Shown piece by piece: positions 7,502 to 8,344 of a stretch of 13,701 nt of DNA. Every line of letters begins with the position of its first letter. Positions within the stretch are counted from its first letter, which is position 1. The stretch comes from a virus (lineage: Duplodnaviria > Heunggongvirae > Uroviricota > Caudoviricetes), in the IMG/VR virus record IMGVR_UViG_2660238190_000005, positions 1 through 13,701 of that record. One strand, given 5' to 3'. A model generated the notes under the pieces. The model made no database searches, had not been told where the DNA came from, and worked only from the letters and a program-made list of their open reading frames with translations. The position numbers and the translations under genes were made by a program.

Positions 7502-7591
7502 ACGATATGTACCTCCGGTGTACATATTACATGATTGAAATGAACCTTCAAGATACTTGTACCTTAACGGTACAAGGGTTTTAATTTCGTT
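7502..7591. promoter_or_regulatory. Divergent repressor/cro operator-promoter region (OR-like) with GTAC-core palindromes
   Basis: Palindromes ATGTAC-ctccggt-GTACAT (7507..7525) and CTTGTACC-ttaac-GGTACAAG (7556..7576). On the cro-sense strand, TTGAAG, a 16-bp spacer and TAATAT form a candidate -35/-10. Confidence 0.5.
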
Positions 7592-8266
7592 ATGAAAACA
7601 ATCCATGACATCCGGCGGTCTAACGCCAGAAAACTGAGAGATGGTGTTGGCGGGAATTCTTCCTTTGCCACTATGATTGATCGCGAGCCAACCCAGACCA
7701 GCAGGTTTATGGGAGATGGTGCTACTAAAAATATCGGTGACAGCATGGCACGACACATCGAAAAATGTTTCGACCTGCCTGTCGGATGGCTCGATCAAGA
7801 ACACCAGACAACGAACATCACAAAAAAACCTGATGTTTCAATCACTAATAAACAAATCACATTAGTCCCTGTCATATCATGGGTACAGGCCGGAGCATGG
7901 AAAGAAGTTGGATATTCTGAGGTTGATTTGAGCACAGCAGAAACGTATCCCTGCCCTGTACCCTGTGGGGAAATGACTTATATCTTGCGGGTGATAGGTG
8001 ATTCAATGATTGATGAGTACCGCCCGGGAGACATGATTTTTGTCGATCCTGAAGTACCTGCCTGCCACGGTGACGACGTTATTGCATTGATGCACGATAC
8101 AGGTGAAACCACCTTCAAAAGGTTGATAGAAGATGGGACACAGCGTTATCTCAAAGCGTTAAACCCAAACTGGCCTGAGCCTTACATTAAGATCAACGGT
8201 AATTGCTCTATAATTGGAACTGTGATTTTCTCAGGAAAACCAAGAAGATACAAAATCAAAGCCTAA
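7592..8266 (+). CDS. CI-like phage repressor (N-terminal HTH, C-terminal S24/LexA-like autopeptidase domain)
   Basis: C-terminal VIGDSMIDEYRPGDMIFVDPEVPACHGDDVIALMHDTGETTFKRL...INGNCSIIGTVI matches the S24 peptidase fold with catalytic Ser (GDSM) and Lys (FKRL). Divergent from cro. 224 aa. Confidence 0.85.
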   Translation: MKTIHDIRRSNARKLRDGVGGNSSFATMIDREPTQTSRFMGDGATKNIGDSMARHIEKCFDLPVGWLDQEHQTTNITKKPDVSITNKQITLVPVISWVQAGAWKEVGYSEVDLSTAETYPCPVPCGEMTYILRVIGDSMIDEYRPGDMIFVDPEVPACHGDDVIALMHDTGETTFKRLIEDGTQRYLKALNPNWPEPYIKINGNCSIIGTVIFSGKPRRYKIKA

Positions 8267-8278
8267 TCAATGTTTATG

Positions 8279-8302
8279 AACCTGCTTCGGCAGGTTTTTT
8301 TA
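8279..8302 (+). terminator. Rho-independent terminator downstream of the repressor gene
   Basis: AACCTGC-ttcg-GCAGGTT hairpin followed by a T-tract (8295..8301), 13 bp after the repressor stop. Confidence 0.55.
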
Positions 8303-8305
8303 TAC

Positions 8306-8344
8306 TTGACAATGTACCCTTGAGATACATAATGTACCCAAGAG
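8306..8344 (+). promoter_or_regulatory. pL-like promoter with overlapping directly repeated operator motif
   Basis: TTGACA (8306..8311), 17-bp spacer, ATAATG (8329..8334). Near-identical 14-bp direct repeats AATGTACCCttGAG / AATGTACCCaaGAG at 8311 and 8331 share the TGTACC core seen in the OR region. Confidence 0.45.

Follow-up and report, generated by a model that had tools for sequence, protein, structure and literature searches.

Seventeen-base-pair dyads at both early promoters of an SfIV/SfV/e14-type prophage, the probable operators of its YmfK-identical repressor

The DNA analyzed here, referred to below as the window, is a stretch of 13,701 nucleotides that corresponds to positions 1 to 13,701 of the IMG/VR virus record IMGVR_UViG_2660238190_000005 (Caudoviricetes). 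Its immunity region contains a cI-type repressor gene and a cro-like gene that are divergently transcribed from a common control region, as well as a second control region, with a pL-like promoter, located directly past the stop codon of cI (8264-8266) and an intrinsic terminator. Both control regions carry copies of an inverted repeat that we propose as the operator of the region. The features are given below from left to right, where O_R and O_L denote candidate right and left operators, pR, pRM and pL denote the early rightward, repressor maintenance and early leftward promoters, HTH stands for helix-turn-helix, ORF for open reading frame, and mismatches are counted against the consensus 5′-TGTACC-N5-GGTACA-3′.

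7301-7501, minus strand: cro-like gene of 66 aa, YmfT/CroE homologue, first in the early-right operon; ORF in which 64 of 66 residues match YmfT of E. coli K-12
7508-7524: O_R1, TGTACCTCCGGTGTACA, 1 mismatch; begins on the final base of the inferred pR -10 and extends over the predicted pR start
7524-7551, minus strand: inferred pR; -35 TTGAAG (7551-7546), 16-nt spacer, -10 TAATAT (7529-7524)
7541-7557: O_R2, weak middle operator, TGAACCTTCAAGATACT, 3 mismatches; coincides in part with the pR -35, its centre lying at -43 relative to the cI mRNA start
7557-7592, plus strand: pRM-like promoter; -35 TTGTAC (7557-7562), 17-nt spacer, -10 TTTAAT (7580-7585), start at the A of the cI ATG (7592)
7558-7574: O_R3, TGTACCTTAACGGTACA, perfect consensus; extends over the -35 and spacer of the maintenance promoter, next to O_R2 without a gap
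7592-8266, plus strand: cI-type repressor of 224 aa; N-terminal HTH domain at about residues 1-71, C-terminal S24 self-cleaving and dimerising domain at residues 93-212
8278-8303, plus strand: intrinsic terminator of the cI transcript, an 8-bp stem (8278-8297) followed by a T-run; conserved in relatives
8306-8333, plus strand: pL-like promoter; -35 TTGACA (8306-8311), 16-nt spacer, -10 CATAAT (8328-8333), 11 of 12 consensus positions, predicted start near 8340
8313-8329: O_L1, TGTACCCTTGAGATACA, 1 mismatch; fills the -35/-10 spacer of pL
8333-8349: O_L2, TGTACCCAAGAGAAACA, 2 mismatches; starts at the last base of the pL -10 and covers the pL start

A sequence-only reading of this region had pointed to a recurrent GTAC core, found in two palindromes between the divergent genes and in two 14-bp direct repeats at the leftward promoter. 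Both palindromes are present, the first at 7507-7525 (ATGTACCTCCGGTGTACAT, with 6-bp arms) and the second at 7556-7576 (CTTGTACCTTAACGGTACAAG, with 8-bp arms), and both correspond to candidate O_R sites; the count of two, however, was one short, as the third and weaker dyad at 7541-7557 had been missed. The direct repeats, AATGTACCCTTGAG at 8311 and AATGTACCCAAGAG at 8331, agree at 12 of 14 positions, but each of them is the left half plus the spacer of a 17-bp dyad. The operator unit is this 17-bp dyad, 5′-TGTACC-N5-GGTACA-3′, and not the bare GTAC core.

Based on a scan of the whole window, TGTACCNNNNNGGTACA occurs at five sites when up to two mismatches are allowed, against 0.35 expected, and at nine sites with up to three mismatches, against 3.5 expected; none of 200 dinucleotide-preserving shuffles equalled either count. 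Four of the five sites with up to two mismatches belong to the two non-coding control regions, where they lie on -35, spacer or start-site positions. The hexamer TGTACC is present in 15 copies, 4 being expected. Eight of these copies are located outside the immunity region, against an expectation of about 4 for the window as a whole; no dyad is formed by any of the eight, and one (4464-4469) sits in a gap between large ORFs. A near-consensus dyad with two mismatches, TGTACCCTGTGGGGAAA, is located inside cI at 7957-7973; it was discarded as an operator candidate, since it is restricted to close E. coli and Shigella relatives and has been lost in Hafnia and other genera despite the conserved protein, and it is therefore probably incidental.

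The placement of O_L2 at pL has the same geometry as that of O_R1 at pR. The centres of O_R1 and O_R2 are 33 bp apart, those of O_R2 and O_R3 17 bp, and those of O_L1 and O_L2 20 bp; the 33-bp and 20-bp distances are near whole helical turns, a spacing that would permit cooperative binding without proving it. A repeat finder grouped O_R2 with the two O_L sites (family D1), and the spacer of O_R1 carries the Shine-Dalgarno sequence of cro (CCTCC; GGAGG on the minus strand).

The leftward promoter had been read as TTGACA-17-ATAATG. The TTGACA hexamer is indeed there, but ATAATG is the weaker reading of the -10 element, and CATAAT with the 16-nt spacer fits the consensus better. On the opposite side, pR is assigned as a putative promoter from its consensus match and its conservation: its -10 element (ATATTA on the plus strand) and the TTG of its -35 element (CAA in the O_R2 spacer) are kept in relatives. 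Also conserved in relatives is an nnTAAT element located 6-7 nt before the cI ATG, where no Shine-Dalgarno sequence is found. By differential RNA-seq, ymfK, the K-12 counterpart of this cI gene, has been placed among the leaderless mRNAs of E. coli (PMC4681348, Fig. 2); therefore, the maintenance transcript should start at 7592, like that of lambda cI from pRM. Taking 7592 as the start, O_R2 is centred at -43, near the position from which lambda O_R2 activates pRM, and O_R3 lies over the weak -35 element TTGTAC.

To examine the region in relatives, we collected loci by tblastn with the N-terminal 105 residues of the repressor, together with a scan of one genome per species. This yielded 28 loci whose N-terminal identity ranges from 55% to 100%, from more than 15 host genera, including Escherichia, Shigella, Atlantibacter, Leclercia, Pantoea, Enterobacter, Pseudocitrobacter, Klebsiella, Trabulsiella, Kluyvera, Entomohabitans, Limnobaculum, Proteus, Rosenbergiella, Hafnia, Pseudomonas and Vibrio. 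All 28 carry dyads at -84/-85 (O_R1), -51/-50 and -34/-35 from the repressor ATG, and also at the first promoter of the leftward operon; the corresponding offsets in the window are -84, -51, -34, +721 and +741 from the cI ATG. The lambdoid layout that had been anticipated, with operators common to the right operator region and pL, is thus supported by the divergent cro and cI genes and by these fixed offsets. O_R3 is the best preserved site, without mismatches in 18 loci and with one in 10, and its spacer is fully variable. O_L1 is a perfect dyad in 14 of the 28 loci, variation being confined to spacer bases. O_R2 shows 2-4 mismatches in the relatives, usually two, as TGAACC-nnCAA-GGTACT. In most Enterobacterales, the left half of O_L2 is conserved, next to a weak right half; Proteus and Rosenbergiella lack the site, and in Pseudomonas it is found 33-36 bp downstream of O_L1. 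O_R2 and O_R3 abut without a gap from Vibrio to E. coli, at a centre-to-centre distance of 17 bp (16 bp in Pseudomonas phages).

Across 54 distinct O_R1, O_R3 and O_L1 sequences, the mean information content is 1.72 bits at half-site positions and 0.31 bits at the five spacer positions. Conserved spacer bases are limited to two cases, each with a reason of its own: the CCTCC in O_R1, because it encodes the cro ribosome-binding site on the other strand, and the CAA in O_R2, because it is the TTG of the pR -35. Away from the two clusters, 185 kb of related sequence contained 10 sites with up to two mismatches, against about 7 expected. At the leftward promoter, TTGACA-a-TGTACC-N5-GGTACATAAT is almost unchanged between Escherichia and Proteus, sequence further downstream being completely divergent, and the 5′ part of this string, TTGACAATGTACC, is also found in Pseudomonas phages. 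In three of the latter (loci L005, L006 and L008), a BrnT/BrnA-type toxin-antitoxin pair is placed between the repressor gene and the leftward promoter, and the dyads are still there. The pair is annotated in LESphi3 as BrnT and a 'transcriptional repressor'.

Inverted repeats with these properties might act as RNA hairpins or terminators rather than as protein-binding sites, and for the clearest case, 7556-7576, a terminator scan does list an 8-bp stem followed by the T-rich GGTTTTAATT. That T-rich tail after O_R3, however, is not conserved in the relatives. What is conserved at five sites per genome, and across genera, is an identical arm sequence and not just the complementarity of the arms, which show no compensatory change while the loops vary freely; at O_R2 and O_L2, the left arm is kept and the right arm drifts, again without compensation. 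Additionally, O_L1 is located in the untranscribed spacer of its own promoter. Given arms that are invariant in sequence and free of compensatory change, we rejected the hairpin or terminator explanation, which we consider scarcely credible.

Counting the stop codon, the repressor and YmfK, from the e14 prophage of E. coli K-12, are identical over 225 of 225 positions; the RefSeq name of YmfK is "putative repressor". The e14 prophage also has the same O_R1-3 and O_L1-2, its O_L pair being located upstream of ymfJ. The S24 domain, previously described as intact, proved to be complete, with a Pfam Peptidase_S24 match (E=1.5e-26) that covers 116 of 116 profile positions, and Ala100-Gly101 (in VQAG), Ser138 and Lys176 are all present. 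This C-terminal domain aligns to that of lambda cI (E=2e-9), catalytic Lys included. With the required residues in place, RecA-stimulated self-cleavage at the Ala-Gly bond by the Ser/Lys dyad is predicted. Pfam HTH models, HTH_3 among them, gave no match in the N-terminal domain; with a profile of this domain, the DNA-binding domain of the repressor of Salmonella phage SPC32H (PDB 5d50) was matched over 71 residues (E=1.4e-7).

The segment FA..IDRE(P/A)TQ(T/V)SR(F/L), which is the expected HTH, is kept in every motif-bearing locus, and the Cro protein is kept likewise; the position of the recognition helix within it is a putative one, taken from the usual HTH pattern. Homologues with 34-42% identity and a different second helix lack the motif. 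In mEp043 and CharmingMan, where the helix reads REPSYVSRM, TTACC-N4-GGTAA dyads are found instead, and H-19B (VSPSQLTQV) has TTATC-type sites; the Klebsiella phage Chronis has neither the TGTACC dyad nor either of these alternative types. A different DNA-binding helix is thus accompanied by a different operator, which is what a repressor-operator pair should show, in agreement with the operator specificity that had been suggested for the region.

An alternative is that the dyads serve Cro (YmfT) alone, or a further phage regulator like YmfL of the CII family, rather than the S24 repressor. The protein that contacts the sites cannot be told from the sequence; the motif and Cro are conserved together just as tightly as the motif and the N-terminal domain of cI, and a gene of the CII/CP76 family is located directly downstream of cro. 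Nevertheless, prophage maintenance needs a repressor that silences pR and pL, and the dyads are the only element common to both core promoters, so that binding by Cro alone or by CII alone would leave the prophage repressor without operators. The repressors of the Pseudomonas and Vibrio phages (246-300 aa) have different linkers and C-terminal parts and share the same HTH segment together with the motif. The known CII proteins, lambda CII, P22 C1 and 186 CII, act at establishment promoters and not at pR/pL operators, which also counts against a CII-family protein. Binding that excludes the repressor is thus improbable.

We therefore favor the dyads as the sites where the prophage's own YmfK-identical repressor shuts off both early promoters in a lambda-type switch, a reading that we hold to be very probably correct. 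Every defining feature of the lambdoid CI/Cro switch family that can be tested on sequence is found here. In the mechanism that we propose, repressor dimers would bind TGTACC-N5-GGTACA through the N-terminal HTH. On the right side, O_R1 over the pR start and O_R2 over the -35 would jointly block the operon of cro/ymfT, ymfL, ymfM and the replication gene, while on the left side O_L1 in the -35/-10 spacer and O_L2 over the start would jointly block the pL-like promoter. The repressor mRNA would start at its own ATG from a weak promoter whose -35 element is inside O_R3, so that O_R3 would allow negative autoregulation by the repressor, or its shut-off by Cro; O_R2, at -43, would occupy the position at which lambda O_R2 activates pRM. 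Upon DNA damage, RecA filaments would stimulate self-cleavage at Ala100-Gly101 via Ser138 and Lys176, which would part the DNA-binding from the dimerisation domain and free both promoters; Cro would then bind the same dyads. The assignment of each protein to each site, the order and cooperativity of binding, the activation of the maintenance promoter and the cleavage are all predictions of this model.

Several observations weigh against this proposal. Both pR and pRM have only 8 of the 12 sigma-70 consensus positions, and a promoter scan listed neither of them. O_R3, the best consensus site, overlaps the repressor's own promoter and abuts O_R2, unlike the affinity order of lambda; O_R2 and O_R3 may therefore be occupied alternately. 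The weak sites O_L2 and O_R2 could be non-functional in some relatives, and binding by cI is not separable from binding by Cro on sequence alone. Additionally, a literature search, which did not cover Allison 2002, Mehta 2004 and Roberts 2007, found no binding experiment for the repressor or for Cro; a full-text search of the literature likewise returned nothing relevant on TGTACC as a repressor operator.

The induction step of the model has its own competitor, in which DNA damage acts through LexA bound at weak LexA boxes and not through cleavage of the prophage repressor, as was proposed for e14 in 2024. In that study, the induction of e14 genes by AZT was lexA3-sensitive, which the authors attributed to weak LexA boxes (PMC11228462). 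Between positions 7400 and 8450 of the window, we found no match to CTG-N10-CAG and none to CTGT-N8-ACAG with up to one mismatch; thus, the promoters lack the CTGT-N8-ACAG site by which membership of the LexA regulon is recognized. The induction of lambda is also reduced in lexA(Ind-) hosts, because they fail to amplify RecA. Dependence on lexA3 is thus no evidence of direct LexA binding, and would equally be expected of a phage repressor cleaved with the help of RecA. Moreover, intE and ymfJ on the left and ymfM on the right of e14 are induced late in the SOS response, unlike LexA targets, and the authors of that second study assign their induction to the CI-like repressor (PMC11002266). Direct control by LexA in place of repressor cleavage consequently appears very unlikely.

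Compared with lambda, the region has the same divergent cI and cro genes, a tripartite right operator region, a cI mRNA that is made from pRM without a leader, a middle operator whose centre is near -42/-43 of pRM, and 17-bp operators of twofold symmetry that are shared with a pL located downstream of cI in the same orientation; the C-terminal domain of the repressor is homologous to that of cI, with the Ala-Gly site and the Ser/Lys dyad. It differs from lambda in the operator sequence, here TGTACC-N5-GGTACA, in an N-terminal domain that Pfam HTH models do not detect, and in the spacing, which is 33 + 17 bp at the right and 20 bp at the left operators, against 23-24 bp in lambda. Further differences are that O_R2 directly adjoins O_R3, that the latter fits the consensus best, that only two O_L sites exist, and that a gene of the CII (CP76) family follows cro. 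According to the SfIV genome paper, N, cII and cIII are missing from SfIV, SfV and SfII. In the window, the first ORF after pL (8501-8707) has no family match and no arginine-rich motif; a system of the lambda N/nut type is lacking here.

Two other repressor systems resemble this one in part. HK022, as read from its sequence (record L038, 2320-2380 on the minus strand and 3120-3200 on the plus strand), has a similar half-site, with TGAAC-N5-GTTCA and TGTAC-N5-GTAC dyads in its right operator region and at pL. Its dyad, however, is 15 bp long and not 17, and its repressor has no detectable similarity in the N-terminal domain, only the S24 core being alignable; HK022 was accordingly rejected as a source of kinship. 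Among solved structures, the SPC32H Rep protein (PDB 5d50) alone matches the N-terminal profile over its whole length. Its C-terminal part differs and has no S24 match. SPC32H Rep is reportedly inactivated by an antirepressor and not by self-cleavage.

The remainder of the window identifies the element that carries the switch. Positions 7250-8750 are 99.1% identical to Shigella phage SfIV, and SfV, Ayreon, cdtI and Stx2c phages match the window over shorter stretches. Three features are located at its right end.

11080-12243: integrase
12258-12333, minus strand: tRNA-Thr(CGU)
12448-13701, minus strand: host proA

This arrangement (11080-13701) indicates an SfIV/SfV-type prophage integrated at thrW, and the region described above is the immunity cassette of an SfIV/SfV/e14-type lambdoid prophage at tRNA-Thr(CGU). 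In the comparison with e14, SfV and SfIV, the repressor shows 100% identity to YmfK, with operators that are the same or almost the same. The immunity region is carried by 1324 of 5426 complete E. coli genomes (about a quarter), including Stx2c, cdt-I and Shigella serotype-converting phages. Similarity to the Ayreon, Stx2c and cdtI phages ends at about 8349-8360, directly after O_L2, and similarity to SfV ends at about 8412. Because similarity stops directly past O_L2, the cassette of cro, right operators, cI, terminator and pL with the left operators travels as a unit.

In the public records, cI, cro and a terminator after cI are annotated, the terminator in the SfV and Ayreon records; the pL-like promoter is annotated as a promoter in phage Ayreon. 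The SfV record U82619 gives a 'putative operator region' that corresponds to positions 7507-7575 of the window and brackets exactly O_R1 to O_R3. Since the design is that of textbook lambda and the operator region had already been marked in SfV, the conceptual novelty is small. What is added here is the explicit 17-bp consensus, the third O_R site, the O_L pair with its fixed geometry, and the family-wide conservation together with its specificity control. In their 2004 abstract, Mehta, Casjens and Krishnaswamy are said to have identified repressor and Cro sites of e14 via similarity to SfV.

Downstream of cro on the minus strand, the early-right operon continues (6365-7269) with homologues of YmfL (CII/CP76 family, 184 of 185 residues) and YmfM (108 of 112 residues), as in e14; in K-12, YmfM is an SOS-inducible division inhibitor. 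The cro-like protein itself has weak Pfam matches to YdaS_toxin and HTH_3, and the gene is co-conserved with the operators across genera. At 5414-6355, also on the minus strand, the window has an uninterrupted replication-gene ORF of 313 codons, the first 79 residues of which agree with the beginning of K-12 YmfN; e14 keeps only these 79 residues, fused into a chimeric YmfN that RefSeq labels as a chimeric replication protein/terminase. Past pL, the window has, as SfIV does, a 68-aa ORF and two convergent ORFs, where e14 has ymfJ and SfV has orf33. The 68-aa ORF (8501-8707) is the first after pL; it has a strong Shine-Dalgarno sequence and is unannotated in SfIV. It overlaps the 3′ end of the two convergent minus-strand ORFs (8679-9113 and 9032-9376), which face the pL transcript. 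The block from 8501 to 9376 looks like a set of inserted genes with their own terminator.

Directly past O_L2, the pL transcript contains a conserved structured leader of about 70 nt (8347-8412, plus strand) that is not part of the operators. It consists of ACAGGCAGGACGCCCACGAAGUAGCCGCC, a 5-bp stem with an 11-13-nt loop, and GGAUGAUUCG. Across 64 distinct leader sequences, pairing in the stem reaches 98%, four Watson-Crick types are seen at each of three pairs, and the covariation was not matched in any of 500 shuffles. When the whole 166-nt leader was folded alone, it was no more stable than shuffled sequence (z=0.42); support is therefore confined to the alignment-based stem. The 21-nt core of the leader is present in at least 120 viral contigs; in 80 of these contigs, each has a single copy, except one with a weaker second match. 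The leader is always located just after a promoter, behind at least 12 operator and immunity types, including a lambda-like left operator, and the first genes after it are mutually unrelated, none of them resembling N. Named carriers include e14 of K-12 (upstream of ymfJ), SfV, SfII, ST64B, mEp237 and ZF40, among others; the phages of this group with described early genes have no N gene. In relatives, other cargo occupies the space past the pL operators or past the repressor gene; the pL leader of the Hafnia phage yong2 (L004, 2667-2740), for instance, contains a tRNA-Gly(CCC).

None of 49 phage records with the leader annotates it as a feature, a few of the matches falling in 'hypothetical protein' ORFs or in a repeat region. 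Rfam 15 has no family for it: at gathering thresholds the whole window gave only the tRNA, and a permissive scan of 8280-8560 gave only sub-threshold noise. King et al. 2011 (J Bacteriol) may have described the leader earlier. A covariance model of the leader found no match in the early/put region of HK022, with which only the GGAUGA hexamer of putL is common; an identity with HK022 put was rejected for want of likeness in sequence or structure to putL and putR. Further downstream, an exact rrn-type boxA, GCTCTTTAACAA, is located at 8444-8455, directly after a hairpin at 8423-8442; hairpin followed by boxA is the order of rrn and not that of lambda nut. The same 12-mer boxA follows pL in E. 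coli, Limnobaculum and Pseudomonas relatives. A second boxA, equivalent to nutR, was represented only by a match with 2 mismatches inside the cro coding sequence, which is at chance level. On the minus strand, the 8423-8442 hairpin and its T-run read as a terminator of the convergent ORFs.

We suggest, tentatively and with the odds against it, that the leader is a cis-acting, protein-independent antitermination or anti-pausing RNA, similar to put in function and unrelated to it in sequence. If so, the YmfK operators would gate entry into a processively antiterminated transcript. The leader may also be the element implicated in the "transcription-termination-mediated immunity" of SfV that was reportedly described by Roberts et al. 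in 2007 (cited in PMC3475682).

The sites described here provide a concrete, testable operator model for YmfK. They also bear on the DNA-damage response of e14, on which two recent studies disagree, one invoking weak LexA boxes (PMC11228462) and the other cleavage of the prophage's own repressor (PMC11002266): the lack of a LexA box at either promoter favors own-repressor cleavage.

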